Assembly (NCBI GenBank): GCA_963693055.1
Contig: OY843751.1
Coordinates: forward strand, 2,210,248 to 2,274,247
Origin: a bacterium
Lineage (GTDB): Bacteria > Zhuqueibacterota > Zhuqueibacteria > Residuimicrobiales > Krinioviventaceae
Direction of reading: 5' to 3'
Length of the DNA stretch: 64,000 bases
Numbering within the stretch: the stretch's first letter is position 1; each line of letters opens with the position of its first letter. Shown piece by piece: positions 1,885 through 56,512 of the stretch. The notes below the pieces were generated by a model that saw nothing but the letters and a program-made list of their open reading frames with translations, ran no database searches and was not told the origin of the DNA. A program made the position numbers and the translations under genes.

Positions 1885-1947
1885 ACATATGAAACGTACG
1901 AAAAAAATGATTTTTAATCAAGGAATGATAACAGGGTTTATAAGAAA

Positions 1948-1976
1948 AAAAGGGGGAAATTATTATTTCCCCCTTT
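1948..1976 (-). terminator. rho-independent terminator of gene 1991..3469
   Basis: AAAGGGGGAAATTATTATTTCCCCCTTTG hairpin followed by T-rich run. Confidence 0.6.
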
Positions 1977-1990
1977 GTGTATGAGGATAA

Positions 1991-3469: not shown

Positions 3470-3516
3470 CAAAGCCTCCCTTGAGAAAATAAAATTGAAT
3501 GAATAAAACAGAAAAT

Positions 3517-3545
3517 GTTTATTTGATAGACAGCCCCAAATAAAC
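3517..3545 (-). promoter_or_regulatory. conserved leader inverted repeat GTTTATTTG-N11-CAAATAAAC
   Basis: read directly; 9-bp arms. Confidence 0.5.
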
Positions 3546-3606
3546 CCACGATGAAAAGTACAGAATTTGGACATGGAAATCAATGTGTAAATTGGAAAAG
3601 ATAAAA

Positions 3607-3634
3607 AAATGACAACAGATTTCTGTTGTCATTT
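3607..3634 (-). terminator. terminator hairpin after gene 3643..5115
   Basis: AATGACAACAGATTTCTGTTGTCATT. Confidence 0.5.
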
Positions 3635-3642
3635 AATGTATT

Positions 3643-5115: not shown

Positions 5116-5149
5116 TTCATTCTCCCTATGAATTCAATAAATTTGCTAA

Positions 5150-6115: not shown

Positions 6116-6163
6116 GCTGTATTTCCTTTCTGAATTGTCGATGAGTTGTGATTTACGTAAAGT

Positions 6164-7678: not shown

Positions 7679-7725
7679 GGAAAATCTCCCTCAAATTTAT
7701 GAATGTTTAAATGATTGAAAAGGTA

Positions 7726-7753
7726 TTATTTGATAACTTCCCCAAATAATCCC
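7726..7753 (-). promoter_or_regulatory. conserved leader inverted repeat
   Basis: TTATTTG-N10-CAAATAA; whole intergenic region about 95 % identical to 1855-1976. Confidence 0.5.
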
Positions 7754-7817
7754 ACATATAAAACGTACGAAAAAAAGGTTTTTTAATCAAGAAATGATAA
7801 TAGGAATTATAAGAAGA

Positions 7818-7845
7818 AAGGGGTAAATCATTATTTACCCCTTTT
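7818..7845 (-). terminator. rho-independent terminator of gene 7858..9206
   Basis: AAAGGGGTAAATcattATTTACCCCTTTT. Confidence 0.6.
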
Positions 7846-7857
7846 ACAGGAAGAAAA

Positions 7858-9206
7858 CTATTTAGAAGTGATAATTGCTTTTAATTCCTGATTTTCGTTT
7901 TTTAAGTCTGAAATGGTATTATTCTGTAATTCAATTTTTTTATTCATATCAATTACATACAATGTCAGTTCTTCGATTTTTTGCAAAAGTTTGGTTTGCA
8001 TTTCACTCACCTGCACACCGTTTTCCTGCATTTTCTGTGAGGAAGGTATTTCCGGCAGGTGTTTGTTTTGTTGTATAAATTGTTCAACATGCTGAAGAGA
8101 GGGAAGGGCATAATCCTTTTCGAAAATAAAATCCGCTCCGGCGTTTGCTTTGATAGTTATGTCTTGGGCACTGATTTTACCGGCAACGGTGAGTCTGGCA
8201 TTTACGTCAGAAGATGTGGTACCTATACATAAATTCCCGCCATTAAAATACGAATTTCCATTGGGATGAAGTTGTACTGTAATATTACCTTCATTGGTTG
8301 TACAGTTATACAGTCTCAACACATTGTTGGACAAAACCATTTGCGGTACCCAGCTAATTCCTCCTGAAGCATGACCCCATTTAAAGATTTCACCATCTCT
8401 AAAACCCCTGAACCGGAACTCTCCGGTACCCGCGTCTATATAATCAAGGAATAATCCAGGGTACAGATTATCATTTGTTGCACCAATGGCAGTATTTCCT
8501 CGTACATCCAGTTTAGAATCAGTATGATATACTGAAGTTGAACCGATTATTACGTTACCATCCGAGTCGATCCTCATTTTTTCCTGTCCCAATGTGTTGA
8601 ATGACATTGAATTGTCTGTATTATCATATCTGATTTGACCTTCCGAATCTTTTTCTTCATCACCAAACAGGATGCCAGCAACATCGTTAAGCTCAGTGCC
8701 GGTACTTACAAGACTGAGCCATGTATTTGCGCCATTTTGTATAACAAGTTTTCTGCCCGGATTGTTTGTTCCGATACCAACATTTCCACCGGTAAAATAA
8801 GTATTGCCGCTGGGATGAAGCTGTACGGTGATATTGCCTTCATTGGTTGTACTGTTATACAGTCTCAGCACATTGTTGGATAAAACCATTTGCGGTACCC
8901 AGCTAATTCCTCCTGAAGCATGACCCCATTTAAAGATTTCACCATCTCTTATGCCCCTGAACCGGAACTCTCCGGTACCCGCGTCTATATAATCAAGGAA
9001 TAATCCAGGGTACAGATTATCATTTGTTGTACCAATGGCACTATTTCCCCGCACATCCAGGATATACCCCGTGTAATTGGTAGATGTGCCTATACCCACA
9101 CTGCCGTTAGTACTGGTTTCTACAGATGAATTGTTCCAATAGTCCACTGCCAAAATAGTGTTCAAAAACCTGCAACCATTAAAATAATGAAGACCAATTT
9201 TTTCAT
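7858..9206 (-). CDS. tail-fibre-like paralog, frameshifted (signal peptide in -1 frame relative to body)
   Basis: body ORF (7858..9255) lacks a signal peptide; rc-ATG at 9204-9206 (overlapping upstream stop as ATGA) encodes MKKLVFIILMVAGF then hits TGA; a 1-nt slip at the T5 run (A5 at 9164-9168 on + strand) joins it to ...LNTILAVDYWNNSS..GSVGIGT. Confidence 0.6.
8217..9063 (-). repeat. intragenic duplication (two ~300-bp copies, ~95 % identity) in gene 7858..9206
   Basis: copies approx 8217-8517 and 8763-9063 (protein ...DVRGN.AIG.TNDNLYPGLFLDYIDAGTGEFRFRG... twice). Confidence 0.7.
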
Positions 9207-10912
9207 AGAGATTCCCTTCCAGTATTATTGAATTTAGTTGTTTTTTCGAGTTCATCAATTCTTGCTTCTAGTTTTTTATTATATTTATCCTGATTAATAA
9301 TATACAGGGTCAATTCTTCAATCTTTTGCAAAAGTTTGGTTTGCATTTCACTCACCTGCACACCGTTTTCCTGCATTTCCTGTGAGGAAGGTATTTCCGG
9401 CAGGTGTTTGTTTTGTTGTATAAATTGTTCAACATGCTGAAGAGAGGGAAGGGCATAATCCTTTTCGAAAACAAAATCCGCGCCACCAGCATCGGCCTTG
9501 ATGGTAATATCCTGAGCACTGATCTTGCCGGCAACAGTGAGTTTGGAACCTGATTCAGGATTGCTGCAGCCGAGAATCACTGAACCATCATAGAGTATCC
9601 TCATTCCTTCATTATTTGTACCAACTCCTAAAATTAATGAACCGTTTTCGGTTGACCTGCCTCTTAAAACAGTATCCCCTGCTTTGCTTCCATTAATGAA
9701 ATTATCATTACCAGTTGCTATTCCAAAGAAAGCCCTGTCAGAATCAATATTGTCAGTATTATTTGTGTTAAGCCGGATTTGAGGTGTGGTTGTTTTGGTT
9801 ATCAGAATTATTCCTTCATCCAAATGCATCTTTTGCAAAGGATTGGTAATACCGATCCCTAAATTCCCTCCAAACCTTTGTAGAATCAATGGTTTCACTC
9901 CAACTCCGTCGTGAGTAGCTTGTATAAATCCCTGATCATTTGTTATATCAAAGCCTATTTGCATTTCTTTAGCTGCGTTTGTTTGCCCTCCGATTATCAG
10001 TTGCGGATTGCTTGTTCCATTCCAATCGCCACGAATTGTCAGAACAGCATTTGACGATCCTGTTGCCTGAACTGTTCCTCCCAATACTACATCACCATTT
10101 ACATTTAATTTTGTGGTAGGAGAGGGCGTACCAATACCCAGATTCCCATTTTCATCCAGTACCATTCTGTTTATTTCAGCGTCAACATCTCTGAAAATCA
10201 GTTTGCCTGCTCCTGATGTAGCAACGTTTGCGGTACTACCAATCATATATGACTTACCGTTGGAATTGGGTTCCGCATTTAAATAAATCCCAGGTCCATA
10301 CCCATTACCTGCCCTGGTTACTTTTATATTTCCATCAACATTCAATCGTTCAGTTAAAGTTGTGGTGCCTATTCCAACATTACCCGTTATATTGGTGTCC
10401 CAGTTTAGATCTATTCCATAATCATCAATGATAATTGCATCATTATAATACCAATTATTTCCTGTTCCAAGTTTATCATAATATCTTCTTGTGCCTATAT
10501 ACATTCTGCCTGTTGCATTGCTATTATTGGTATTTGCTGGAGTAACCAGGATTCGCCCTTGTCCCCATTGTCCTGAACCGTCGGTTGATGAAGGTGCTGT
10601 AAACTCTAACATTGAACCTGATTCTGTAGTTCTTGAAGTATTATTGGCATGTATGATAAAAGCATTATTCTGATCTGTAACAGTGTTTATTGTAGTTGCT
10701 GATGTAAAAACGAACCGGGCACGTCCGCCGGAAAAGTCAAGTTTGTAAGTTGGAGTGATTCCAATACCTACATTAGTTGTCAAAGTAGTTGTACTGCTGC
10801 CGGATGTTTCCCAATCATCATTTGTTGTGTCTTGTGCAGCAAGGTTATAAAAGAAGCAACTAATAAAAAACAGGATATTGATTAATCCAAATAGCCATTG
10901 ATTCGTTTTCAT
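9203..10912 (-). CDS. tail-fibre-like secreted protein, paralog family member
   Basis: ORF to 10984 in track; GGAGGAAAGG RBS and SP MKTNQWLFGLINILFFISCFFYNLAAQDTTNDDWETS favour start 10912; conserved C-terminal module. Confidence 0.75.
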   Translation of the reverse strand: MKTNQWLFGLINILFFISCFFYNLAAQDTTNDDWETSGSSTTTLTTNVGIGITPTYKLDFSGGRARFVFTSATTINTVTDQNNAFIIHANNTSRTTESGSMLEFTAPSSTDGSGQWGQGRILVTPANTNNSNATGRMYIGTRRYYDKLGTGNNWYYNDAIIIDDYGIDLNWDTNITGNVGIGTTTLTERLNVDGNIKVTRAGNGYGPGIYLNAEPNSNGKSYMIGSTANVATSGAGKLIFRDVDAEINRMVLDENGNLGIGTPSPTTKLNVNGDVVLGGTVQATGSSNAVLTIRGDWNGTSNPQLIIGGQTNAAKEMQIGFDITNDQGFIQATHDGVGVKPLILQRFGGNLGIGITNPLQKMHLDEGIILITKTTTPQIRLNTNNTDNIDSDRAFFGIATGNDNFINGSKAGDTVLRGRSTENGSLILGVGTNNEGMRILYDGSVILGCSNPESGSKLTVAGKISAQDITIKADAGGADFVFEKDYALPSLQHVEQFIQQNKHLPEIPSSQEMQENGVQVSEMQTKLLQKIEELTLYIINQDKYNKKLEARIDELEKTTKFNNTGRESL

Positions 10913-10943
10913 CTTTCCTTTCCTCCAATGAGATAGAATTTGA

Positions 10944-12695
10944 TTAATTGTTTTGAATTGTTTTGATCCATTTTTTGATTTCACTGTTTTCTTTTTTTAT
11001 GGAATCATTTTCTTTTTTTAATTCAATGACGTATAATGTTAATTCTTCTATTTTTTGTAACAGATTTGCCTGGAACTCACCAATATCAATTCCCTTATTT
11101 GTTGCTTCATCTGCGGAAGGAATACCGGGCAGGTGTTTATTCTGGTGGATAAATGCTTCGGTTTCTTCTATAGACATGAGGTCATAATCATCTTTAAATA
11201 CATAATCAGGTAATGATTCCTGCTGTAACTGGATTTCCTGTGCTTTGATTTTATTGTTTACAACCAGTTCTTTATTTACAGTTACCTGGTTATCCGTATT
11301 TATTGACATTGATACATTATCAGATTCATCGAGAAAAATTATATTATTCCCTTTAATACCCACGGGAGTTGTCCAATCGTTACCGTTATATGCGTCCCAT
11401 AGCATCGTACTTAGTCCACTATTATAATATAATCGTCCTTTTAACAATCCATTACTATTTATACCAATCGAGCCATTAATATCCAGAGTATGGGTGGATT
11501 CCATATTGATACCCAATTTATTTATCTGTGTATAAGCATTTTCCAGATTTATATCAAAAATATTTACATAATTAGAACCACGGATAAATAAATGTTTTGA
11601 GGTTCCTGATTGCTCTTGAATATAAAAATTTCCATTTGCCACTGACATAGACCAATCCATATTTACATCATCTTCTGAAAACCATATAACCGGAGAAGCA
11701 CTTTTAATTTGAAATGAATAATCTGGAGATATTCCAATACCTATTTTGTTGGAAATAAATATATCTCCATCATTTTCCACTTTAATTCCTTCATCATCTC
11801 CATCACCTGATAAAAAATTGGAATTCAGTATGATTTTACCAGTAAGTAAATTCAGATCACCACCTGCATTAATATCAATTAACGGTGTTGAGAAATTTGT
11901 AAATCTAAAGAGAGGTCTGGCATTGACTGTAGTAAATGTTCCGTTTATGGGATCGCCACTGTGAAGTTGACCAATAAATGTTATTAGGGGAACATTTCCA
12001 ATGTCATATTCACTTGTAGTCATTCCCTGGAATATTAATGAATGCCTGGTACTGGATGGAGTTGTACCATAAAAAGCTGGTTCAAATATTCCGGTAGAAT
12101 ATGTAGAATTTTTAATTCCGAATTGATATCCGGTTGCATCACTTACTGTCGCTTTTATAATACTTTCACGGCTCGTTGATTCTGCTAAAGAAACAATATC
12201 AATGGTTGAATTAATATTTGTTGTATTAACGCCTAATTTTCCATTTTCATTAACCCTGAATAATTGTGAGTTTATGTCATTATTATGACTTATAATTAAT
12301 GCAGCATTTTCGTCATTTGTATCCGAATCCAGGTCGATAATGTAATTTCTTAAACCCGATGTCCAGGCATCCCTTGTATCTGTTAGTCGTGTACCGAATA
12401 TTGCATTATTGATTTTTATTTTGTCTAAACCATATGTAGTTCCAATTGTTAATTTTTCTGTTGGATTAATTCCGATTCCCAGTTTACTACTTGCGACTAC
12501 ATCGCCATCATTTTCAACAGTGATTCCTTCATTACCTCCATCATTGGACAGGTAATACCCATTGAGAGAAATGTTTTCGGTAAGCACTTCATCAATACTG
12601 TTACTTGAAGAATTCTCAACAGCAACCAAAAAATTTACCATTGAAAAAAAGAACAACAAAAACAGTTTACCTGTACACATTGTAAGGTTTTTCAT
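10944..12695 (-). CDS. tail-fibre-like secreted protein, divergent paralog
   Basis: SP MKNLTMCTGKLFLLFFFSMVNFLVAVENSSS at rc-ATG 12695 with AAGGTGGG RBS; divergent C-terminal module ...NKHLPGIPSADE..LLQKIEELTLYVIELKKEN. Confidence 0.75.
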   Translation of the reverse strand: MKNLTMCTGKLFLLFFFSMVNFLVAVENSSSNSIDEVLTENISLNGYYLSNDGGNEGITVENDGDVVASSKLGIGINPTEKLTIGTTYGLDKIKINNAIFGTRLTDTRDAWTSGLRNYIIDLDSDTNDENAALIISHNNDINSQLFRVNENGKLGVNTTNINSTIDIVSLAESTSRESIIKATVSDATGYQFGIKNSTYSTGIFEPAFYGTTPSSTRHSLIFQGMTTSEYDIGNVPLITFIGQLHSGDPINGTFTTVNARPLFRFTNFSTPLIDINAGGDLNLLTGKIILNSNFLSGDGDDEGIKVENDGDIFISNKIGIGISPDYSFQIKSASPVIWFSEDDVNMDWSMSVANGNFYIQEQSGTSKHLFIRGSNYVNIFDINLENAYTQINKLGINMESTHTLDINGSIGINSNGLLKGRLYYNSGLSTMLWDAYNGNDWTTPVGIKGNNIIFLDESDNVSMSINTDNQVTVNKELVVNNKIKAQEIQLQQESLPDYVFKDDYDLMSIEETEAFIHQNKHLPGIPSADEATNKGIDIGEFQANLLQKIEELTLYVIELKKENDSIKKENSEIKKWIKTIQNN

Positions 12696-12736
12696 AGACC
12701 CACCTTGATTTTTTGATATGATTAAATAATGAAAGT

Positions 12737-12765
12737 GTTTATTTGATTTGAATCCCCAAATAAAT
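12737..12765 (-). promoter_or_regulatory. conserved leader inverted repeat GTTTATTTG-N10-CAAATAAA
   Basis: read directly. Confidence 0.5.
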
Positions 12766-12826
12766 CCACAATTATTATACAAAAATGGACTCTATTATCC
12801 AATTACTAAATGACGATTTGCAAATA

Positions 12827-12859
12827 AAAAAGGGACAATTTATTAAAACTGTCCCTTTT
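12827..12859 (-). terminator. rho-independent terminator of gene 12889..14265
   Basis: AAAAGGGACAatttattaaaacTGTCCCTTTT. Confidence 0.6.
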
Positions 12860-12888
12860 AAAATCAGTAAATTATTGTGGATCAATAA

Positions 12889-14265
12889 TTATTTTGTTTT
12901 TAGTAAAATATTTTTTTCCAGTTTTTCAATTTTTTTATTCATCTCTATCATGTGCAACGTCAGTTCTTCAATCTTTTGTAAAAGTTTGATCTGCATTTCA
13001 CTCACCTGTACTCCGTTTTCCTGCATCTCTTTTGCAGAGGGGATTTCCGGCAGGTGCTTGTTTTCCAGAACATACTTTTCAACATGTGCAAGAGAAGGGA
13101 GGGCATAATCATTTTTGAAAACAAAATCCGCTCCGGCGTCCACTTTGATGGTAATATCCCGTGCGCTGATTTTGCCGGCAACTGTGAGTTTCGCATCAGC
13201 AACAGGAGATGTAGTTGATGTACCAATACAAACTTGTCCATTAGAATCGATTGAGATGCCTTCATCATCGCCATCACCTGAGATATAGTTGTTATTTGTA
13301 TTAATCGTTCCTTGTAGATTAATATTGCCAGCTGAGCCCGCAACCAACTTTAACATTCCTGGAGAAATTGCATGGTTTTCACCATAGCTTACAATATATG
13401 ACCCCCTGTTTGAACTGATCCCGCCTCCACCGGAAATAGCGACTGATTTTTCATCATTCCCTGTTGTTGTGTTTGTTCTTAAAGTTGTTGTTGATAGTCT
13501 TCCAATAAATGCACCGTTACATTCGATATTGCCTGAGAATGAAGCTATACCTGAATCTGATATTTGTAATCCTTCATCGTCACCATCATTTGAAATAAAA
13601 TTATTATTCATCTCAATATTTGTATTTGTAAACCTGAATGTTCCTTCATTTTCATCAAATCTTCCAACTTCAATGCCATTATTTACATGAAAAACAATAT
13701 CTGCTATATTCCCGGATGAAAAGCCCAAAGCACCTGATGAAGTCATTTTTACAGCAGAGCCTCCCCAACCATTGAAATTCAGTGAAGCTGAATTGTTTAA
13801 TTTAGAAAATTTAACATCCCCATCATTCCCTATTTGAATACCTTCATTATCCCCATCATTTGAAAGATAATTCGAATTTAATATTAAATTTCCATTATTA
13901 AGATGGATATTATCATTTTGATCAATTGATAATGAAATTCTTCCGGCAGTACTGTTAACTATTTGAAAGTAATCTAAACCTGTACCTGAACCGTTGACTC
14001 GCATTGTCCATTCTCTGGCGTCATTTTGTAAACGTAATGTTGCATTTTGGTTCAATGTTGTTGATTTAATTCTCAAGTCAGCCACAGATGTTTGAATGTC
14101 AAAATCATAATTAGGAGATAAACCAATACCCACATTGCCAGTTGTTGTTGTATTGCCATTTCCATCAGTTACCCAGTTATCATCTGATGCTTGTATAGTA
14201 CATGAATAAAAAATAGCAATAAAGATACTGATGAAAAATTTTTTTAACATGGATACAGATTTCAT
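12889..14265 (-). CDS. tail-fibre-like secreted protein, paralog family member
   Basis: 458 aa; SP; SDDNWVTDGNGNTTTTGNVGIG; GDGDDEGI repeats; conserved C-terminal module; GGGAGG RBS. Confidence 0.8.
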   Translation of the reverse strand: MKSVSMLKKFFISIFIAIFYSCTIQASDDNWVTDGNGNTTTTGNVGIGLSPNYDFDIQTSVADLRIKSTTLNQNATLRLQNDAREWTMRVNGSGTGLDYFQIVNSTAGRISLSIDQNDNIHLNNGNLILNSNYLSNDGDNEGIQIGNDGDVKFSKLNNSASLNFNGWGGSAVKMTSSGALGFSSGNIADIVFHVNNGIEVGRFDENEGTFRFTNTNIEMNNNFISNDGDDEGLQISDSGIASFSGNIECNGAFIGRLSTTTLRTNTTTGNDEKSVAISGGGGISSNRGSYIVSYGENHAISPGMLKLVAGSAGNINLQGTINTNNNYISGDGDDEGISIDSNGQVCIGTSTTSPVADAKLTVAGKISARDITIKVDAGADFVFKNDYALPSLAHVEKYVLENKHLPEIPSAKEMQENGVQVSEMQIKLLQKIEELTLHMIEMNKKIEKLEKNILLKTK

Positions 14266-14317
14266 GTTCGCCTCCCTAAATACATTAAAGAATTTGTGTA
14301 AATAGAATGATTAATGT

Positions 14318-14346
14318 GTTTATTTAATATACATCCCCAAATAAAT
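14318..14346 (-). promoter_or_regulatory. conserved leader inverted repeat
   Basis: GTTTATTTA-N11-CAAATAAA downstream of promoter 14356-14384. Confidence 0.5.
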
Positions 14347-14355
14347 CCTCGAAAG

Positions 14356-14384
14356 AATATAGATATATATTTTGAGTGAATCAA
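14356..14384 (-). promoter_or_regulatory. sigma70-like promoter for the unit 12889..14265
   Basis: minus strand TTGATT-17 nt-TATATT. Confidence 0.45.
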
Positions 14385-14400
14385 TGAATTGTTGAAAAGA

Positions 14401-14432
14401 AAAAGGGGAGACGTGGAATAATTTCTCCCCTT
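14401..14432 (-). terminator. rho-independent terminator of gene 14449..15444
   Basis: GGGGAGAcgtggaataatTTCTCCCC + TT. Confidence 0.55.
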
Positions 14433-14448
14433 AATAGTTAATAGGATT

Positions 14449-15444
14449 TTATTTTGCAGAAATCATTTCTTTTAAACGATGATTTTCTTTTTCAAGTGAA
14501 TCTACTTTTTTATTCACTTTTATCATGTGTATTGTCAGTTCTTCGATTTTTTGTAAAAGTTTGCTTTGCATTTCACTCACTTGCACACCGTTTTGCCGCA
14601 TTTCCTGTACTGAGGGGATTTCCGGCAAGTGCTTGTTTTTCTGTATAAACTGTTCAACGTATTCAAGTGAAGGGAGCGCGTAATCTTTTTCAAAAACAAA
14701 ATCCGCACCGGCGTCCACTTTGATGGTAATATCCCGTGCGCTGATTTTGCCGGCAACTGTGAGTTTCGCATCAGCATCAGGAGATGTAGTTGATGTTCCA
14801 ATACAAACTTGTCCATCAGAATTAATTGAAATGCCTTCATCGTCGCCATCATTTGATATATATTTTGTGTTAATCTTTAAATTTGCACCAAATGCAATAG
14901 CATCAGGTGTTGCTGAGTTTTGTTCAAACCAGAAAAAACTTTTTCTGTATGTGTAATCGTCATTCATTGCCTGAAAATACAGATTACCTAATGTTGTGTT
15001 AATTCTCCAATTCTTTTGGTTAGTTGCGACATCATTTTCTTCAAATAATAATTCTGGACTATCTCCATAGACATGTAATAATGATTGCGGATTGGTTGTA
15101 CCAATTCCAACTTGACCACTATTTTTTAGAAACAATGTGTTTTTTAAAATTCCATCTAGTTGTGTTCGAAATTGTAGATTCAAGTTTGTGGTTCCAGATT
15201 CATCTCGTGCTTGAATAAAGGCAGTTCCGGAAGTACCCTCACCATTATAAGAATACAAATAAATATGCCCTCTTCCGTAATAATCGCCATTTACATGTAA
15301 TGATTTTTTGGGATTTAATGTCCCTATCCCAACACTACCGTTTGTAGTCGTTTCAACTGTTGTTGAACCATTCCAGTAATCTTTACTCATAGATTTATTG
15401 CTAAATAAAAATAAAAATGCAAATATCATAATATGCTGTTTCAT
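14449..15444 (-). CDS. tail-fibre-like secreted protein, paralog family member
   Basis: 331 aa; SP; KDYWNGSTTVETTTNGSVGIGT; conserved C-terminal module; AAGGAG RBS. Confidence 0.8.
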   Translation of the reverse strand: MKQHIMIFAFLFLFSNKSMSKDYWNGSTTVETTTNGSVGIGTLNPKKSLHVNGDYYGRGHIYLYSYNGEGTSGTAFIQARDESGTTNLNLQFRTQLDGILKNTLFLKNSGQVGIGTTNPQSLLHVYGDSPELLFEENDVATNQKNWRINTTLGNLYFQAMNDDYTYRKSFFWFEQNSATPDAIAFGANLKINTKYISNDGDDEGISINSDGQVCIGTSTTSPDADAKLTVAGKISARDITIKVDAGADFVFEKDYALPSLEYVEQFIQKNKHLPEIPSVQEMRQNGVQVSEMQSKLLQKIEELTIHMIKVNKKVDSLEKENHRLKEMISAK

Positions 15445-16929: not shown

Positions 16930-17760
16930 TCAAGTCATTTTTAAATAAATTTGTGCAGGTGTTTGGTATTCCAAACCCTGATGACGCCTTTCGTTGTTAA
17001 AAAAATCAAAGTACCATTCCAAACCCGAATAAAGGTCGAGTCCTGTTTCAGGCGCATTAATATAAACATATTCGTACTTGACGCAACGCCACAACCGCTC
17101 GATAAAAATGTTGTCAAATGCCCGACCCCGGCCATCCATGCTTATCTGGATTTTTTGAGTGTCAAGAACAGCAAGAAAATCTTTGCATGTAAACTGGACG
17201 CCTTGATCGGTGTTAAAAATTGTCGGATCACCATGCTTCTCGAGAGCGCATGTTAGTGCCTCAATGCAAAAAACGGCATCCAAACTGTTCGAGATTCGCC
17301 AGGCCAGAACATATCGGCTAAACCAGTCGATCACCGCAACTAAATACAAAAAACCGCTCGGCATCGGTATATAGGTTATATCTGTACTCCAGACTTGATT
17401 AGGTGCCGTAACTTTATAATCTTTCAGCAGATACGGGTATATTTTATGAACAGCACCATCGTTTTTGAACCGGGGCTTTGGGTAGATTGCCTCAAGCCCC
17501 ATTAAGCGATATAACCGTCTGATTCTTTTCACGTTAACCTTATATCCACGGCCAAGAATATACTGATGCATGCGCCTGGCACCGTAGAATGGTGTTTTCA
17601 TAAACTGAACATCCATAAGGCGCATCAGTTCGAGATTGAGCGCACTTTCCGGTTGTGGCTGATAATAATAACCGGACCGACTGATCCCTAAAAGCTCACA
17701 TTGTCGTCCAATAACGATGTGTTTATATGACGGATCAATCAGCGCACGTTTTTGATGGTG
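16930..17760 (-). CDS. IS3-family transposase OrfB (DDE integrase core), expressed by -1 frameshift from orfA
   Basis: open in -1 frame from 17760 (LTEHHQKRALIDPSYKHIVIGRQCELLGISRSGYYY...); rve-type motifs ...WSTDITYIP..., ...FNTDQGVQFT... Confidence 0.75.
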   Translation of the reverse strand, partial: HHQKRALIDPSYKHIVIGRQCELLGISRSGYYYQPQPESALNLELMRLMDVQFMKTPFYGARRMHQYILGRGYKVNVKRIRRLYRLMGLEAIYPKPRFKNDGAVHKIYPYLLKDYKVTAPNQVWSTDITYIPMPSGFLYLVAVIDWFSRYVLAWRISNSLDAVFCIEALTCALEKHGDPTIFNTDQGVQFTCKDFLAVLDTQKIQISMDGRGRAFDNIFIERLWRCVKYEYVYINAPETGLDLYSGLEWYFDFFNNERRHQGLEYQTPAQIYLKMT

Positions 17761-25622: not shown

Positions 25623-26285
25623 ATGCTAATGACAAAAATACAAATTTTGCTAATTGAAGACAATGACCTTCTTCGGGAAGGCATTGCAGCTATGCTCAAT
25701 GATCATCATGAATTCAATGTCATTGCACGATCTGAAGATGGTAATATTCTGCAACAACTCAACAAGCTGGGGGAATTACCCAATATCGTCCTTTTAGACC
25801 TGGGATTGGAAAAAGTAAACAGTTTAATGTTGATGAAGCAACTTTTTGAAGAATTACCAACGGTCAAAATCATTGCCATGGACATCCTTCCCGATCACGT
25901 CGATATTGTCGAATTTGTTAAAGCCGGTGGCTCCGGTTTTATTCTTAAAAACGCCCCTTCGCAAGATTGGATCGAAACAATCAAATCCGTTGCTGTGGGC
26001 GCCAAAGTACTGCCCCCGGGTTTGACCCAATCACTGTTTACACAAATCATCGAAATGGCCCTCAAAAACAAAGATGGCATACCTGCCGACTCGGTCCGCT
26101 TTACGAACCGGGAACGTGAAGTTATCAACCTGATTACTGCAGGTCTGAGCAACAAAGAAATCGCGGAATCACTTCACATCTCCACTTATACCGTCAAGAG
26201 CCATGTGCACAATGTCCTGGAAAAGCTGGAACTCAGTAGCCGACTTCAGATTGCGGCACATATCCGCAATGAAGGCCAAATATAA
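25623..26285 (+). CDS. response regulator, NarL/FixJ (LuxR-type HTH) family
   Basis: REC domain (LLIEDND...D..L) + C-terminal LTNREREVINLITAGLSNKEIAESLHISTYTVKSHVHNVLEKL. Confidence 0.85.
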   Translation: MLMTKIQILLIEDNDLLREGIAAMLNDHHEFNVIARSEDGNILQQLNKLGELPNIVLLDLGLEKVNSLMLMKQLFEELPTVKIIAMDILPDHVDIVEFVKAGGSGFILKNAPSQDWIETIKSVAVGAKVLPPGLTQSLFTQIIEMALKNKDGIPADSVRFTNREREVINLITAGLSNKEIAESLHISTYTVKSHVHNVLEKLELSSRLQIAAHIRNEGQI

Positions 26286-26555: not shown

Positions 26556-27269
26556 GTGCAATTGAGTATTCATTATTATGTCTTGTCATTGAGTGATCAA
26601 TTAAGCATTCTTTATGAAGCTTTTCGGGACAAACTTATTTCGATCCAAAACTCAAATTTCCCGTTTGAATCTTTTATTCACGCAGATCATTCTGATAATC
26701 AGGCATTTAGAAACTCCCAATTGAAAGAATTTTTCCGCCAGACAGACCAGCATTTTATTCATTATTATGATCAGGACCCGCTTTACCTTGTAGTTGTAGG
26801 CGAAAAAAACAACCTGTCCATTTTTGAAACCCTGATAACCCATCGGGACGCATTAATCGGACACATTGAAGGTAATTATATTATAACCTCTCCTCATGAT
26901 TTGGGAAAAATTGTCTGGCCAGTTATTAAAGAAGCCATATCCGGCTCAAATAATAATGCTTTACGTGAACTGACAAAGGCGGCAGAAGCGAGTAATGTCG
27001 TCTCCGGAATTGATGCAGTAGGGCAATCCGCTGAAACTGAAACAGGCCCCATGTTATATGTTGAAGAAGATTATCATGTAAAGGGTAGTCTTCGAAAAGT
27101 AGATCAAACAACAATTGTACGTTCAAAACATGTGGAATTATGGGATGTTATCGATGACGTGGTGGATATCATCATCGAAAAAGTACTTGAAATGGGTGGC
27201 ACTGTAATCTTTATGAAAAATGACTCATTGAAAAATCATGAGAGAATCGCTTTGGTCCCAAGTAGTTGA
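26556..27269 (+). CDS. hypothetical protein (GTG start)
   Basis: AAGAGG RBS then GTG; 237 aa. Confidence 0.5.
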   Translation: MQLSIHYYVLSLSDQLSILYEAFRDKLISIQNSNFPFESFIHADHSDNQAFRNSQLKEFFRQTDQHFIHYYDQDPLYLVVVGEKNNLSIFETLITHRDALIGHIEGNYIITSPHDLGKIVWPVIKEAISGSNNNALRELTKAAEASNVVSGIDAVGQSAETETGPMLYVEEDYHVKGSLRKVDQTTIVRSKHVELWDVIDDVVDIIIEKVLEMGGTVIFMKNDSLKNHERIALVPSS

Positions 27270-38830: not shown

Positions 38831-39118
38831 ATGCCAAAACAAAAGTATACATCAGAGTTCAAGGTCCGCACAGTGTTAGAAGGTCTCAAGTCACCAGACG
38901 GGATTGCCGCCTATTGTCGCCAAAAAGGGATTAGTGAGGTTCAATTTTATGGTTGGCAGAGACAGATGATCGAGAATGCGGATTCGGTATTCCACAAGAT
39001 GTCCAAAGCTCAGGAACGCAAGGTTTCGCAAATGGAAGCAGATCTGAAACGCAAGGATGAAATCATAGCGGTGGTTACTGAAGAAGCGTTAGAGCTCAAA
39101 AAAAAACTGCGCAAATAA
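38831..39118 (+). CDS. IS3-family transposase OrfA
   Basis: AAGGAG RBS; MPKQKYTSEFKVRTVLEGL... Confidence 0.7.
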   Translation: MPKQKYTSEFKVRTVLEGLKSPDGIAAYCRQKGISEVQFYGWQRQMIENADSVFHKMSKAQERKVSQMEADLKRKDEIIAVVTEEALELKKKLRK

Positions 39119-40103
39119 AGCGTTACCGCCATCTGGATATTGCAACGCGAATGGATCTGTTAGGGATGCTGGAGCGCTATGCCAATACGGATGGAGTAAA
39201 GAATCAATATGCCGGAAATGGGGCCTCAGCCTCAATTCATTTTACTCATTCAATCCGGCTCCAAAAGGAAAAGCAGGTTCGTTGAAAATCCAGATAAACA
39301 AGATCACTGACGAAGAAAAGACCAAAGTCATATCTTATGCTCTTTCCCATACGGACCTGAACCATAGAGAAATGGCGTATCGCATGATTGATGAGAATAT
39401 TGTTTTTATGAGTTCATCGAGCGTGTATCGCATCCTTAGAGAAAACAATCTGTTAGTACGTCGCCAGCCGAGACCAAAGCGAGATTATTGGAATGCTCAT
39501 ACTATGTTAACAGGCCCCGATAAAGTCTGGCAAACCGATCTGATGGTGGTCCGGTATAAAAATCGGGATTATTATCTATTGTCTTACATGGATGTGTTTT
39601 CACGATGTATTGTATATTACAAACTTTGCAGCAGCATGACAGGTGACACAGTTAAGGAGGCAACCCTGGAAGCATTTGCGGTAACAAATAAAAAGCCGGA
39701 GGTTATCCAATCCGATAATGGCAGCTGTTATATTAGCAGTGAGTACAAAAAGTGCTTTGCCAACTGCCCAATGGAACACCGTTTTATACATCCACACTGT
39801 CCGAACGAAAATGCCGAAATCGAACGATATCACCGGACACTGCGGGAAATGATAGATCCGTACGATGCCAGAGATTTTAATCAACTGTGCGAACTTGTCA
39901 AAGAACAGATAGAATATTATAATCATAAACGCTATCATTCCGGTATAGGATTTGTACCGCCCTGGCTGAAATATACTGGTAAGGCGGATTCACTGATCAA
40001 GTCCAGAAAACAAAAGTTACAAATAGCCAAACAGAAACGTATGAAACAAAACTGGACAAATTATCAAAGTGCAATTCAAACAATCAAACAAAAAGCAGCA
40101 TAA
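39093..40103 (+). CDS. IS3-family transposase OrfB (rve/DDE), -1 frame
   Basis: frame open from 39093; ...WQTDLMVV...; ORF-track portion 39282..40103. Confidence 0.7.
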   Translation, partial: SSKKNCANKALPPSGYCNANGSVRDAGALCQYGWSKESICRKWGLSLNSFYSFNPAPKGKAGSLKIQINKITDEEKTKVISYALSHTDLNHREMAYRMIDENIVFMSSSSVYRILRENNLLVRRQPRPKRDYWNAHTMLTGPDKVWQTDLMVVRYKNRDYYLLSYMDVFSRCIVYYKLCSSMTGDTVKEATLEAFAVTNKKPEVIQSDNGSCYISSEYKKCFANCPMEHRFIHPHCPNENAEIERYHRTLREMIDPYDARDFNQLCELVKEQIEYYNHKRYHSGIGFVPPWLKYTGKADSLIKSRKQKLQIAKQKRMKQNWTNYQSAIQTIKQKAA

Positions 40104-53146: not shown

Positions 53147-53183
53147 CGCGGTTGTTATGTGGACACTGAAATTTGAGTTGAAT

Positions 53184-54605
53184 ATGAAAGCTGGTTTAAA
53201 ATATAAATTATATATACATATATTTTTTGGGGTTTTAATCATGCTGTGTATTCCACAGGATGGTTGTACGGAGACAATTCAAACCATTTATATTTCACAA
53301 CAAGACGGAACGGATATTGATAATATTGGTAATGACAAAAACAAACCCATTCGTACATTGGCAAGGGCCAGAATTATTGCATTATCGAATTGGAGAAATG
53401 TGGATGGTTTTGAGATACTTTTTAAGGGGGGCGAACAATTTGACGAGTTTATACCCATTACAAATCAGGTTCTAAAAGATTATGATCCATTACGCAATTC
53501 GTTTGCATTTGTCTGGGATATTGACAGGTCTTTGAAAATTTCTACTTTTGGATCTCAAGAAAAAGCCATCATGTATTCAGACAAATATACGCATGAAGGA
53601 GGCCCGCAGACAGCAATAGCTGTTACAACTCCCAGTAGCCGGAATGTTATTGTTGAAAATATTCATTTCAAACATTGGCAGGTTTGCGCTTTTTTTGCGT
53701 ACAAGACCCGTAACATTCAATTTTTGAACAATATTGTTGAAGAAATTGGAACCCTTTATTTCCCTGATGAAAAAACACCGGGGATTTATGGAGCGGGTGC
53801 CATATATCCCAAAAACTCTTCCAATGTATTCATTAAAGGAAACTATATTCTCAATATTCATAATCAGTTTGATATGCTCGACAAGATGCATGTTTTTTAT
53901 TTAACCCGGTTGAACAATTCTGAGATATGTGATAATATTATAATAAACGCAAGCGGACCACCGTTAAAGTTTCGTCGTTCTCAGACCAATAATGTTTATG
54001 TGCATGATAATGAATTTTACTATACCGGACCCTCACAATCCTTAAATCAGGTTCAGGAAGGCTGGGTGAGGTATAGCGGAGATGCTGATGATGGCTGCCC
54101 CTATGCAATAGTCATAGAACACAATTTGTTTTATTATCCATATTGTTGGGAAGGCACGCAAGCTTGTGATAATGCTTTGGCTGTAAAATACAGTATAAGC
54201 AATACAAGCGTTTGTGGTACGGAGGCTTGCGAGGATGATGAAAAGGTAAAGTGGATTGATAACGACTATCGTTATGAATGGGAATCCTATACTGTACCAG
54301 ATATACCTACCCGTGTTGAAAATACAATAGCCAGTGATGTCGGAACATTTGAATTGTTTGAAAACTATCCCAATCCATTTAATCCGGTAACAGAGATTTG
54401 TTTCCGAATACCAACCCGTAATCAAACCCGGTTAAACATATACAATGAATTAGGTGAAATTGTACGTAATCTTGTTGACAAAAGTTTAGAACCCGGATAT
54501 CATCATTTCACTTTTAATGCCAGTGAATTACCATCCGGAATTTATTTTTACAGACTTGAAAGTGGAGAATTGAACAAAACAAACAAGATGGTACTGATAA
54601 AATAA
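53184..54605 (+). CDS. secreted beta-helix protein with T9SS C-terminal sorting domain
   Basis: SP MKAGLKYKLYIHIFFGVLIMLC; C-terminal ENYPNPFNPVTEICFRI...GIYFYRLESG. Confidence 0.65.
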   Translation: MKAGLKYKLYIHIFFGVLIMLCIPQDGCTETIQTIYISQQDGTDIDNIGNDKNKPIRTLARARIIALSNWRNVDGFEILFKGGEQFDEFIPITNQVLKDYDPLRNSFAFVWDIDRSLKISTFGSQEKAIMYSDKYTHEGGPQTAIAVTTPSSRNVIVENIHFKHWQVCAFFAYKTRNIQFLNNIVEEIGTLYFPDEKTPGIYGAGAIYPKNSSNVFIKGNYILNIHNQFDMLDKMHVFYLTRLNNSEICDNIIINASGPPLKFRRSQTNNVYVHDNEFYYTGPSQSLNQVQEGWVRYSGDADDGCPYAIVIEHNLFYYPYCWEGTQACDNALAVKYSISNTSVCGTEACEDDEKVKWIDNDYRYEWESYTVPDIPTRVENTIASDVGTFELFENYPNPFNPVTEICFRIPTRNQTRLNIYNELGEIVRNLVDKSLEPGYHHFTFNASELPSGIYFYRLESGELNKTNKMVLIK

Positions 54606-54710
54606 GGAAAATTTTCCGGTAGGTTTTGGAAAAAAGGCGGTTATTTCATATAGTATTTACTAGAAGTAACCGGAAGTCAAACAAAGATTTTAAAACTTAC
54701 CGGAGGACAA

Positions 54711-55538
54711 ATGTACAATACTCGTAGTAGTTTGTATGACAGGATATTAGAAAAAACACCCGAGCAAGTATTCATCAATTCTTTACGAAAAGAATTTGAA
54801 TTATCACCGGCAGAAAGTAAAGGGATATTGGATTTAGCCAAGCAGTGTTTATTTGGCGAGGTTCCCCAGACAGTTGGTAAAATAAAATATATCTGCGCAT
54901 CCACCAAGGCAAAACATGGCAAGCCCCTGGGTGAGCAGGAATTGAAAGAAGTAGAGTTAACACTGGATGCCGGTGTAGAAGATTTAAATGTATTAAAAGA
55001 AAGCGGTCCCAAGGCACTGCGCCAGTTAAAGGTCTTACGATTGACCGAAGAAGCCTGGGATCAGGAAGGTTCTTTGACACAAGAGGATTTGGCCCGGATC
55101 CTCCAGGTTACGAGTCGCACTGTACGCCAGGATATAAAGTCTTTGCAGACTGATGGCAACTTTATTCACACGCGCGGAACAGACCATGACATCGGTCGGA
55201 GCTTGTCACACAAAAGCCACATTATTGAACTGTATTTGCAGGGAGACACATACGATGCAATTATTCGTAAAAGTCGTCATAGCGCGTTTTCAATAAAACG
55301 ATATGTGTGCAGCTTTGGCAGGCTGTTGTTATTACTGAATCATGGTATGCAGGATATCAAAGAGATCAGTCGGTTATTAGGCCAAAGTGAGCGTTTGACC
55401 CGTGAGTACCTGGATATTTTTGAGCATCATAAACAGGGTGACAAATGGCCGCCGATCTATGTAGAGTTATTGGAGCAATTAAAGGTGTTATACCCCTCGA
55501 AAAAAAAACAAACCAAGGAGGGGACCGATGAAGACTAA
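54711..55538 (+). CDS. multi-HTH protein A (DUF1670-like?), first of an overlapping paralogous pair
   Basis: GGAGG RBS; HTH-like LTQEDLARILQVTSRTVRQDI, IIELYLQGDTYDAIIRKSRHSAFSIKRYV, IKEISRLLGQSERLTREYL. Confidence 0.6.
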   Translation: MYNTRSSLYDRILEKTPEQVFINSLRKEFELSPAESKGILDLAKQCLFGEVPQTVGKIKYICASTKAKHGKPLGEQELKEVELTLDAGVEDLNVLKESGPKALRQLKVLRLTEEAWDQEGSLTQEDLARILQVTSRTVRQDIKSLQTDGNFIHTRGTDHDIGRSLSHKSHIIELYLQGDTYDAIIRKSRHSAFSIKRYVCSFGRLLLLLNHGMQDIKEISRLLGQSERLTREYLDIFEHHKQGDKWPPIYVELLEQLKVLYPSKKKQTKEGTDED

Positions 55539-56343
55539 GCCTTTAAATCGTTATGAATCAATAGCTAAGCGTAGCTTTCAAAATGCGATTATTCGATTAC
55601 TGGAAGAAAATTATAAAATGCTGGGAAGCCACAAAGTCATCCGGATGATTGCAGAAGATATTGTCGCATTGCAAAATGAATTTTATCCAGAGCTGGAAAA
55701 GAAAAGTTTTGGTCAGATTATCTGGCGGACAACCAAAGCGACAAACCGAAAGCCAAGCTATGGCACAAAAGCGGAAGATTATGAGGTTCAGACAGTTGTG
55801 CTACCGTTGGTAACAGATGCGGATATTGACAATCGTATCAAAAGCCATTATTCTTATCCCCCAAAAGATGGCAGTGCTAATTATGAAAAACAAACAGAAC
55901 GGGATATTAAAGTAATGGCGCGGTTATGCAAGAGTGCGGCAGAACAGGGCGGCTGGTTGACAGGTGCAGAACTCAGTGTATTGTTGAATCGCTCATTAAA
56001 CACTATTGGTCGGTATATGACAATTTATCATGAAACGCATGATGATATATTGCCGACTAAAGGAATGATGCTGGATCAGGGCAGTAAGCCGACGCATAAA
56101 GCCGCAATTATAGATTTGTACGAGCAGGGATATCCCGAACCGGATATCGCCCGGATTACAAATCACACAATTGAATCAACGAGTCGGTATTTAAAGAGTT
56201 ACAAGAACGTAAAATCATTATTGGAAAAAGGTTTTAATTTAATGGAAATGGTAAGAATAACCGGATTAGGACGGAGTACAATATTACAATACCGTGATCT
56301 GGTTTATCATTATCATTCAGATTTAATACAAAAGAAAACTTGA
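55528..56343 (+). CDS. multi-HTH protein B, paralog of 54711..55538 (11-nt overlap)
   Basis: AAGGAGGGG RBS inside upstream gene; LTGAELSVLLNRSLNTIGRYM, AAIIDLYEQGYPEPDIARITNHTIESTSRYL, EMVRITGLGRSTILQY. Confidence 0.6.
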   Translation: MKTKPLNRYESIAKRSFQNAIIRLLEENYKMLGSHKVIRMIAEDIVALQNEFYPELEKKSFGQIIWRTTKATNRKPSYGTKAEDYEVQTVVLPLVTDADIDNRIKSHYSYPPKDGSANYEKQTERDIKVMARLCKSAAEQGGWLTGAELSVLLNRSLNTIGRYMTIYHETHDDILPTKGMMLDQGSKPTHKAAIIDLYEQGYPEPDIARITNHTIESTSRYLKSYKNVKSLLEKGFNLMEMVRITGLGRSTILQYRDLVYHYHSDLIQKKT

Positions 56344-56384
56344 AAATTTGAAAAGGAATTAATAGGTTAGGTTGTCATTGTTTT

Positions 56385-56427
56385 TCAGCTAACTCCAGTC
56401 GCCCTACGAGCTCCTTTCGTTAGCTGA
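56385..56427 (+). repeat. hairpin element sharing a 24-nt core (AACTCCAGTCGCCCTACGRGCTCC) with 16865-16908 inside IS3 #1
   Basis: read directly; may also be the terminator of 55528..56343. Confidence 0.45.
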
Positions 56428-56512
56428 AAAAATGAATAAATGTTCTAATCTTAAAAACAACCTACCGGAAATATTTCCTAAACGTAAGTAGGAAAACTAT
56501 TAATTAAAGGAT

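Follow-up and report, generated by a model that had tools for sequence, protein, structure and literature searches.

Pfam family PF07900 (DUF1670) has no assigned function; no paper mentioning DUF1670 or PF07900 was found in the literature that could be searched, and searches combining T9SS, insertion sequences and stop codons returned nothing relevant. A mobile-element context, inverted repeats, a target-site duplication or a preferred target are, as far as could be checked, not part of the family description. Several described mobile elements share individual features with the DUF1670 gene pair examined here. In Tn7, TnsD binds the conserved 3′ coding end of glmS and insertion occurs just downstream, which spares the gene; the 14-kb element has a single target site, inserts about 25 bp downstream and makes a 5-bp duplication. 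Members of the IS630/Tc1-mariner superfamily encode one transposase with a DDE_3-type catalytic domain and duplicate a TA target. IS3-family elements encode orfA and orfB, which are fused by a −1 frameshift, carry an rve (DDE) domain in orfB, have TG...CA ends and duplicate 3–5 bp. MITEs and other non-autonomous elements exhibit inverted repeats, a short duplication, many copies and no recognisable transposase gene, and MITEs by definition carry no conserved coding capacity.

The gene pair lies in a 64,000-nt window, the whole stretch of DNA that was analysed (contig OY843751.1, positions 2,210,248–2,274,247), among genes encoding TonB-dependent receptors, T9SS-tail proteins, GH28 and oligogalacturonate-lyase-like proteins. 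An earlier note, made from the sequence alone, had described two overlapping, paralogous multi-HTH proteins of DUF1670 type, without sensor, kinase, receiver or anti-sigma partner, and had proposed that they act as a heterodimeric regulator of the polysaccharide locus or represent a domesticated transposase DNA-binding module. What the note observed is confirmed. Genes A and B overlap by 11 nt, and an AAGGAGG motif lies 6 nt before the ATG of B. Both proteins match PF07900 far above the 25-bit gathering threshold (A, 160.1 bits, E 6.6e-47, model positions 30–220; B, 163.9 bits, E 4.9e-48, positions 1–220 of the 220-position model), and BLASTP demonstrates that they are paralogous (31 % identity over 139 aa, E 2e-13). 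NCBI names their relatives 'DUF1670 domain-containing protein'. AlphaFold models (mean pLDDT 85.8 for B and 75.0 for A) show the same predicted plan in both, namely N-terminal helices, a beta-hairpin and three HTH-like helical bundles. Pfam detected no sensor, kinase, receiver or sigma/anti-sigma domain, while the statement that typical PUL regulators such as HTCS, SusR, ECF sigma/anti-sigma and AraC proteins are absent holds only locally, as a LuxR-type response regulator is encoded elsewhere in the window. The note's interpretation is partly supported; the role of locus regulator is not supported. The note did not report that the pair is bracketed in intergenic DNA by a 21-nt inverted repeat (19/21 complementary), whose 13-mer core occurs only at these two places in the 64 kb, as does the palindrome motif GGAA[AG]NN[CT]TTCC. 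Each end comprises a 12-bp palindrome of the form GGAAA(A/T)(T/A)TTTCC plus GGTAGGTT, and the GC content is higher than in the flanks. The features of the unit are listed in the table.

Table. Positions within the 64,000-nt window of the element, its host gene and other features discussed in the text
Feature	Position	Strand	Description
LuxR-type response regulator	25623–26285		Outside the immediate neighbourhood of the pair
A9 run in an IS3-type copy	39098–39106		Analogous to the A9 run of gene A
Host target gene	53157–54605	+	Beta-helix protein with a T9SS C-terminal sorting domain (Pfam Por_Secre_tail and Beta_helix), ending ...NKTNKMVLIK
Last two host codons as now read	54600–54605	+	AAA TAA, chimeric: AA from the host, A+TAA from the element
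Left copy of the duplication	54600–54601	+	AA, first two bases of the last sense codon of the host gene
Whole mobile element	54602–56485	+	1,884 bp
Left end	54602–54625	+	4-nt tip ATAA (third base of Lys plus a new TAA stop), palindrome and inner motif
Left palindrome	54606–54617	+	GGAAAATTTTCC, 12 bp, perfect
Left inner motif	54618–54625	+	GGTAGGTT
Arms of the 21-nt inverted repeat	54605–54625 / 56459–56479		19/21 complementary
Left subterminal region	54626–54710	+	Contains further CCGG motifs
Promoter-like sequence	54626–54654	+	TTGGAA-17-TATAGT (weak evidence only)
CCGG motif	about 54635	+	GGCGGTTA
CCGG motif	54666–54676	+	GTAACCGGAAG
CCGG motif	54694–54706	+	AACTTACCGGAGG, inverted copy of the inner repeat motif, overlapping the ribosome-binding site of gene A
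Gene A	54711–55538	+	DUF1670 protein, 275 aa; predicted N-terminal helices, beta-hairpin, three HTH bundles and C-terminal helix
Reading frame of B (+1)	open from 55483	+	
A9 run at the end of gene A	55500–55508	+	Candidate slippery site
AAGGAGG before gene B	55515–55521	+	Inside gene A
Gene B	55528–56343	+	DUF1670 protein, 271 aa, same architecture as A; family-wide conserved linker motif LPxRGxxHDxGxxxTHK at residues 175–191
Optional 3′ hairpin module	56381–56431	+	13-bp stem with a conserved 25-nt loop
Right end	56459–56485	+	Inner motif, palindrome and 7-nt tip
Right inner motif	56459–56466	+	AACCTACC
Right palindrome	56467–56478	+	GGAAATATTTCC, 12 bp, perfect
Right tip	56479–56485	+	TAAACGT
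Right copy of the duplication	56486–56487	+	AA
Displaced third base and stop of the host gene	56488–56491	+	G TAG

The boundaries of the unit were defined by the positions at which seven near-identical copies of related elements in one complete 5.45-Mb chromosome (OY769902.1) stop matching, and by conserved tips in more than 30 further elements. These seven copies, which differ by 0–5 positions in 1,799 bp, have sharp common boundaries and unrelated flanks. The window's own 6.5-Mb genome contains at least three protein-A variants, and hundreds of metagenome contigs of 1.8–2.1 kb carry the pair; most homologues lie on contigs of this size, the signature of collapsed repeats. The ends are conserved in all 34 distinct full-length elements compared. 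Exact look-ups of two genomic copies and of the flanking host proteins returned no record, no synteny was found between the window and any retrieved locus, and no left flank was found joined to its right flank in the retrieved DNA; indirect support for empty sites comes from unoccupied T9SS gene ends.

All 16 upstream ORFs in genome loci end in a canonical T9SS sorting domain, as do 79 of 87 distinct left junctions overall (...K-M-x-L-x-K followed by the stop). Insertion occurs after base 2 of the last sense codon and is accompanied by a 2-bp duplication that follows the target: AA/AA at 46 junction pairs, AG/AG in locus L002 (last codon AGA) and CG/CG in locus L146 (last codon CGA), with one mismatch on a contig that may be chimeric. 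Of 28 distinct right flanks, 27 read dinucleotide, purine and stop codon; this sequence varies among otherwise identical copies in one genome, and the information content beyond it is about 0. All 58 occupied ends are followed directly by the left palindrome, and across the junction listings the stop there is the TAA of the element except for TAG variants in L146 and in the truncated locus L054, while the 24 unoccupied T9SS ends use TAA, TAG and TGA (9/8/7), the same mix of stop codons as that seen beyond the right end. A 24-nt target matrix trained on other loci (17.3 bits) ranked the real site and the only other Lys-ending T9SS tail first and second among 124,180 positions in the window.

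Both genes exhibit pN of 0.10–0.24 against saturated pS of 0.82–0.92, all 34 distinct full-length elements keep both frames open, and no other ORF is conserved. An A8 or A9 run is present in all 34 elements although synonymous sites are saturated, and loss of one A in the transcript or a +1 ribosomal shift would give an A–B fusion; the offset is +1 in 31 of 34 elements. Natural in-frame fusions exist, although slippage itself is inferred. Alignment of nine diverged elements revealed the CCGG motifs of the left subterminal region. The 3′ hairpin is present only in some lineages, with one compensatory stem change, and no Rfam family was matched within the element.

Two distant subfamilies (35 % and 45 % identity, in GC-rich hosts and Anaerolineae) have the same A-then-B pair, inverted repeats and a 2-bp duplication, which is TC/TC in one distant subfamily and AA/AA in the Anaerolineae one. 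The latter even has the same tip–palindrome–tip layout, without the T9SS target and without a stop codon in its left tip. Distant subfamilies in phyla lacking T9SS share the architecture but not this target. In all three subfamilies the inner repeat motif recurs at the start of gene A with a subfamily-specific sequence. A further profile search returned mostly close B orthologues and did not reach archaeal members, among them the Methanosarcina founders of PF07900, and no relatives were found in the plasmid or phage collections.

Searches for a catalytic domain gave negative results. Neither A nor B was found to contain a catalytic fold or a conserved acidic triad, nor does the element encode a transposase of a recognised class (DDE/RNase H, DEDD, HUH, serine or tyrosine). 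B has a resolvase-type HTH_7 hit, but the N-terminal resolvase catalytic domain with a nucleophilic serine that characterises small serine recombinases was not found. The label 'GIY-YIG endonuclease' carried in JGI by protein P0392 is not supported, as this protein and P0391 are N-terminally truncated A fused in frame to B, and family members of 530–950 aa are only tandem DUF1670 units. The PDB sequence hit 8vd6 is a designed HTH-repeat protein. Resemblances of the conserved H...Y spacing to tyrosine-recombinase box II and of the HK motif to PLD nucleases were considered but dropped, because the residues sit in ordinary HTH recognition-helix or linker positions and no fold match supports them. 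No informative PHROG hit was obtained, and the pair does not match known anti-phage defence systems, as PADLOC yielded only weak HTH-level hits to CasR, WYL and CARF-associated HTH models for A and none for B.

The element fits the generic definition of an insertion sequence in being a short unit (<2.5 kb) bounded by terminal inverted repeats, in its direct target-site duplication whose sequence follows the target and in its several near-identical copies at unrelated sites in one genome, but not in encoding a transposase of a recognised catalytic class. In comparison with the described systems, the element resembles Tn7 only in its targeting logic, in that a conserved protein-coding 3′ end (here the coding tail plus the stop) serves as the address for a harmless insertion next to the stop codon. 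No TnsA/B/C/D or TniQ homologues were detected, insertion occurs inside the last codon with the stop codon rebuilt, and the target is a paralogous family of many genes per genome. With respect to IS630/Tc1-mariner, no DDE_3 domain was found, the duplicated dinucleotide is AA, AG or CG, and there are two paralogous proteins with three HTHs each. As in IS3, there are two overlapping ORFs with a conserved slippery-type A8–9 run just before the overlap and the downstream frame open across it, and an IS3-type copy in the window shows an analogous A9 run; however, there is no rve domain, the duplication is 2 bp, the ends are not TG...CA, and the downstream ORF is a paralogue of the upstream one with its own ribosome-binding site and start codon. 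Unlike MITEs, the element is filled by two intact ORFs under purifying selection across phyla.

We therefore conclude, with good confidence, that the pair is the complete coding content of an undescribed insertion-sequence-like mobile element and not a regulator of the surrounding locus. The analysis itself establishes the palindrome-based terminal inverted repeats, the multiple copies and recent spread, the 2-bp duplication, the position inside the last sense codon of T9SS sorting-domain genes in this subfamily with restoration of frame and stop by the left tip, the purifying selection on both proteins, and the absence of other conserved ORFs. What the proteins do is inferred: A and B, as a hetero-oligomer and perhaps also as a fusion made by slippage on the A8–9 run, would bind the palindromic ends and the repeated CCGG motifs, one of which overlaps the ribosome-binding site of A and would give autoregulation. 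With six HTH modules between them, they would also read the roughly 20-bp codon-periodic DNA encoding ...K-M-x-L-x-K-stop and direct a 2-nt staggered cut after AA, which would result in a safe-harbour insertion between a stop codon and its terminator, at a sequence present in many copies per genome. The chemical step remains unresolved; that A and B are themselves an unrecognised kind of transposase is regarded as somewhat more likely than that an enzyme encoded elsewhere acts in trans, although both readings are tentative.

A non-autonomous element, in which A and B only bind DNA for end recognition, target choice or copy-number control and a transposase or recombinase encoded elsewhere in the genome does the cleavage and joining, is a serious but less favoured possibility. 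It is suggested by the lack of a catalytic fold, by solo and truncated ends such as those found in families moved in trans, and by the two IS3-type DDE transposase genes in the window. However, none of 120 metagenome loci retrieved by the repeat sequence holds a different cargo or a transposase between such ends (GGAAANNTTTCC), solo matches were chance hits in coding sequence or truncated ends, and the IS3 copies do not share the ends. A tyrosine-recombinase fragment near the solo end in locus L074 shares only about 27 nt of end sequence with loci L120 and L076, and so is a neighbour and not cargo. Moreover, the two ORFs stay intact and under purifying selection across phyla and down to 35 % identity, always as the sole content, which would require an unseen partner to travel with the element through Bacteroidota-like, Calditrichota, KSB1, Chloroflexota and Thermodesulfobacteriota hosts.

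The remaining explanations appear unlikely. A conservative site-specific recombination, in which a circular intermediate integrates by serine- or tyrosine-recombinase-like crossover at a fixed AA core rather than by transposition with a staggered target cut, could be suggested by the HTH_7 hit, by the abutted ends, which form a near-palindrome around the dinucleotide (perfect in the Anaerolineae subfamily, CCTAATT-GTA-AATTAGG), by the 12-bp palindrome shared by the two ends and by a 23-bp tip–palindrome–tip remnant in locus L153. Nevertheless, AG/AG and CG/CG at both junctions fit duplication of target bases rather than exchange with an element-borne AA core, which would need a matching core in the circle, and no recombinase catalytic domain was found. 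It is equally unlikely that A and B, through binding sites (the palindromic ends) placed behind many T9SS cargo genes by the spread of the mobile element, act in trans as a global modulator of secreted-protein genes, for example by affecting termination, read-through or mRNA 3′ ends, even though dozens of identical pairs of these putative binding sites lie directly after T9SS cargo stop codons, solo ends persist behind T9SS genes, and A and B are predicted DNA binders; there is no evidence of any effect on host genes, subfamilies without the T9SS target have the same proteins, so that the ancestral role is element propagation, and the insertion geometry looks designed to be neutral to the host gene. 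The dedicated two-protein regulator of the earlier note, which rested on multi-HTH proteins without another assigned function among TonB-dependent receptor, GH28 and lyase genes and with no adjacent conventional regulator, is already contradicted and very improbable, since identical or near-identical pairs sit in many unrelated contexts with different neighbours at each locus, are bracketed by inverted repeats and a 2-bp duplication, and in other phyla have no CAZyme or T9SS neighbours.

The element has every structural hallmark of a transposable element but no recognisable transposase; either a new catalytic class exists or there is an unusual dependence on a host enzyme. A tentative reading, which the data do not rule out, is that DUF1670 A/B is a new class of transposase, built only from HTH modules and a small helix/beta-hairpin domain and with no known catalytic fold, that cuts with a 2-nt stagger and in one subfamily has evolved to read about 20 bp of protein-coding tail DNA, so that it lands inside the last codon of T9SS cargo genes and rewrites their stop codon. 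This would add a new enzyme class to DNA transposition and provide a natural, compact (two proteins of about 270 aa), sequence-directed safe-harbour insertion system. These elements also break metagenome assemblies at T9SS cargo genes and seed misjoins, and they will be mis-annotated as regulators of CAZyme loci, as happened in the earlier note. The insertion between bases 2 and 3 of the last sense codon of a paralogous gene family, with the third base and a stop codon supplied by the element itself, is an extreme case of harmless insertion and shows how a degenerate, codon-periodic coding sequence can serve as a DNA address. For DUF1670, which has 708 representatives at 50 % identity, these observations place the family as the signature of an IS-like family found in bacteria of several phyla.

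The observation made in the earlier note, that two overlapping paralogous genes encode proteins with several HTH-like segments within this polysaccharide locus, was confirmed. ORF A (275 aa) and ORF B (271 aa) overlap by 11 nt, the B start codon ATG is preceded by AAGGAGG, and both proteins match PF07900/DUF1670 at E about 1e-47, while NCBIfam has no model for them. The two proteins are paralogous, sharing 31 % identity over 139 aa (E 2e-13). AlphaFold models predict the same plan for both (B: mean pLDDT 85.8 from a 74-sequence alignment; A: 75.0), namely two or three N-terminal helices, a beta-hairpin and three HTH-like bundles, with a conserved loop motif, LPxRGxxHDxGxxxTHK, between the first and second bundle. 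The neighbouring genes encode TonB-dependent receptors, T9SS-tail proteins, a GH28 and oligogalacturonate-lyase-like proteins. The nearest conventional regulator, a LuxR-type response regulator located next to a bacterial eRF1-like protein (baeRF_family3), lies 29 kb from the pair.

The pair is bracketed by a 21-nt inverted repeat (19/21), which had not been recognized in the earlier note. The 13-mer core of the repeat occurs only at these two places in the window, against 1.3 loose matches expected by chance, and the palindrome motif GGAA[AG]NN[CT]TTCC also occurs only there in 64 kb. The left arm starts at the stop codon of the upstream gene, while the right arm ends 34 nt before the ATG of the next gene, and the pair is GC-richer (0.42–0.47) than its flanks (0.33–0.38). 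The positions of these and other features are listed in the table.

Positions of the features of the DUF1670 element, of other genes in the window and of related ends in retrieved loci (L numbers)
Feature	Sequence	Position	Strand
ORF A	window	54711-55538	
ORF B	window	55528-56343	
Inverted repeat, left arm	window	54605-54625	
Inverted repeat, right arm	window	56459-56479	
Whole element (1,884 bp)	window	54602-56485	
3' hairpin	window	56381-56431	
G TAG, in the insertion model the original third base and stop of the host gene	window	56488-56491	
Unoccupied Lys-ending T9SS tail	window	45112	
IS3-type DDE transposase ORF	window	16930-17625	-
IS3-type DDE transposase ORF, with upstream orfA	window	39282-40103	+
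A9 run of the second IS3-type element	window	39098-39106	
TonB-dependent receptor gene downstream of the second IS3-type element	window	40402	
Tandem array of ten paralogous ORFs	window	558-15444	-
baeRF_family3 protein	window	26556-27269	+
LuxR-type response regulator	window	25623-26285	+
Pile-up of DUF1670 elements	L062	1-3731	
Mini-remnant and second left end	L153	about 2039-2090	
Solo end	L074	2143	
Solo end	L120	8604	
Solo end	L076	4043	rc

Hundreds of homologues at 70–90 % identity exist, most of which are found on contigs of 1.8–2.1 kb, the size of the bracketed unit, as is characteristic of a repeat after assembly collapse. The genome to which the window belongs, a 6,535,007-bp contig, carries at least three protein-A variants. 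A scan of species-representative genomes returned 17 loci, seven of which are in one complete 5.45-Mb chromosome (OY769902.1), with sharp common boundaries, unrelated flanks and only 0–5 differences in 1,799 bp. Moreover, exact-protein look-ups showed the same A-then-B pair beside different genes in many samples.

From outside to inside, the left end of the element consists of a 4-nt tip ATAA, a 12-bp perfect palindrome GGAAAATTTTCC and GGTAGGTT, while the right end consists of AACCTACC, the palindrome GGAAATATTTCC and a 7-nt tip TAA(ACG/TAG/TCG)(T/A). The left subterminal 85 nt holds further CCGG motifs, one of which is an inverted copy of the inner motif that overlaps the ribosome-binding site of gene A. 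A hairpin in the 3' untranslated part, with a 13-bp stem and a 25-nt loop of conserved sequence (TCCAGTCGCCCTACGAGCTCC...), is present in some element lineages (the window and loci L001, L018 and L028) and absent from others, and one stem position shows a compensatory change. No Rfam family matches the hairpin or any other part of the element.

All 16 upstream ORFs in the genome loci end in a canonical T9SS C-terminal sorting domain (YPNPFNP...G.Y[FL].[LM]...K.M.L.K, followed by the stop), as do 79 of 87 distinct left junctions over all the DNA retrieved, where the last residue is K in 66, R in 11 and Q in 2; the remaining eight are pseudogenised tails, nested elements or chance matches. Beyond the right tip, 27 of 28 distinct flanks read dinucleotide + purine + stop codon (TAA, TAG or TGA), which differs among otherwise identical copies in one genome, and the information content drops to about zero after it. 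The dinucleotide is the same on both sides, being AA/AA in 46 elements, AG/AG in locus L002, where the last codon of the host is AGA, and CG/CG in locus L146, where it is CGA, while one mismatch occurs on an 18-nt flank. Unoccupied T9SS gene ends in the same DNA use all three stop codons (9/8/7) and several last codons. All 58 occupied ends are followed directly by the left palindrome, and across the junction listings the stop there is the left-tip TAA, with TAG variants in L146 and in the truncated L054. In the simplest model, the target is the last sense codon plus stop (NNR TRR), and insertion follows base 2 with a 2-bp duplication. The ATAA of the element would then supply a new third base and stop, so that the host protein is unchanged, while the original third base and stop would end up beyond the right end.

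Locus L153 holds a 23-bp mini-remnant ATAA-GGAAAGTTTTCC-TGATAGT (left tip, one palindrome and right tip) between AA and AA, directly followed by a second full left end, while L020 has a tandemly duplicated right tip; these may be excision or deletion footprints made through the palindrome shared by both ends, and they show re-use of the regenerated AA/ATAA site. In L019, compared with L027 and L066, the same host T9SS gene appears with the element joined about 55 nt upstream of the normal position, so that the last 18 or so codons are missing, which is either an element-adjacent deletion or an assembly artefact. Locus L062 (also L103 and L112) contains a pile-up of DUF1670 elements, comprising the right end of one element, then a 30–35 %-identical DUF1670 pair in reverse orientation with its own inverted repeats (TATCAAATGACC.../...GGTCATTTGATA) flanked on both sides by ACAGTAAATA, and then a second full element. 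Right flanks starting ATAG-TATCATAT... in L019, L022, L025, L123 and L164 look like ends or remnants of that second element type.

The left-flank profile is codon-periodic, with T at -4, -7, -10 and -13, and AA at -16/-17 and -1/-2. A 24-nt matrix built only from other loci holds 17.3 bits. On the window with the element removed in silico, the two top scores among 124,180 positions belong to the only two Lys-ending T9SS tails, the unoccupied one (23.9 bits) and the real site (22.9 bits), while the next best score is 18.7. Direct DNA reading by a multi-HTH complex is therefore sufficient in principle, although that the target is chosen in this way remains an inference.

Both genes are under purifying selection, with pN of 0.10–0.24 while pS is saturated at 0.82–0.92. 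All 34 distinct full-length elements in the correct orientation keep both long open frames, and no other ORF on either strand is conserved. All 34 also keep an uninterrupted A8 or A9 run 25–30 nt before the B start, and in all nine diverged elements examined in detail the frame of B is open across it. Natural in-frame A-B fusions and 2–4-unit tandem proteins exist as well. These observations point to joint action and possibly to programmed slippage, as in IS3-type elements. One genomic copy of protein A (P0005), from the same 6.5-Mb genome as the window, ends exactly at ...YPSKKK (266 aa), at the poly-A run, which suggests run-length variation among copies. The window itself contains two IS3-type DDE transposase ORFs (HTH_21/rve/rve_3), which are not similar to each other at the DNA level; the second has an upstream orfA ending ...LELKKKLRK before its stop, with a classic A9 slippery run, and sits just upstream of a TonB-dependent receptor gene. 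The window also holds a tandem array of ten paralogous ORFs (321–612 aa, 33–85 % identical to one another), along which a 13-mer TTTCCGGCAGGTG recurs 8 times in register; none of the four tested has a Pfam match.

No catalytic domain was found in the proteins by Pfam and NCBIfam searches, by inspection of family members with extra length, by Foldseek (nothing at E <= 0.001) or by a PDB sequence search, which returned only a designed HTH repeat. Family-wide conserved residues include a single acidic residue. A metagenome scan with the end sequence, intended to reveal a partner enzyme, returned 120 loci, comprising intact A+B elements, contig ends at the repeat, chance hits in coding sequence, and truncated or solo left ends behind T9SS tails, with no other cargo. 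Three solo ends (L074, L120 and L076) share about 27 nt (AAGGAAATATTTCCGGTAGGTT[GC]CTT) and then diverge completely; L074 is followed by a tyrosine-recombinase fragment, and L120 by a putative SIR2-like ORF, judged by eye from its GAGAS-type motif, and a further unidentified ORF. They look like truncated ends abutting other islands. No relatives were found in the plasmid or phage collections, and there was no defence-system match.

The interpretation offered in the earlier note was only partly supported. The proposal that the pair regulates the surrounding locus is wrong, while the resemblance to transposase DNA-binding modules was a good lead, although the module is not domesticated but is the whole gene content of a live, previously undescribed IS-like element. 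No paper in the literature searched mentions the family, and NCBI names the proteins only ‘DUF1670 domain-containing protein’, although prior description under another name cannot be fully excluded, since ISfinder was not covered. The mobile-element identity and the codon-precise target model rest on direct sequence evidence and are held with high confidence, whereas binding of A/B to the ends, reading of the target and slippage are inferred. With respect to the catalyst, the possibility that A/B are a new kind of transposase is tentatively preferred, without reaching even odds, while an enzyme acting in trans remains possible but somewhat less likely.

The organization of the element is not restricted to the hosts of the T9SS-targeting subfamily. 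A subfamily only 35 % identical to B is again an A-then-B pair on contigs all under 2 kb, with inverted repeats of about 28 bp, the same dinucleotide (TC) on both sides and the inner repeat motif at the start of gene A. An Anaerolineae subfamily (45 % identity; 1,844 bp) has the same layout as the element in the window, flank-AA / ATTA-GGAAACATTTCC ... GGAAGCATTTCC-TAATTGT / AA-flank, but its flanks are unrelated and are not T9SS genes, and its left tip contains no stop codon. Named hosts include KSB1, Caldithrix, Balneolales, Ignavibacteriaceae, Neomarinimicrobiota, Bacteroidota, Anaerolineae and Thermodesulfobacteriota. The architecture is therefore ancestral to the family, while the T9SS address and the stop-restoring tip are specialisations of the subfamily to which the element in the window belongs.
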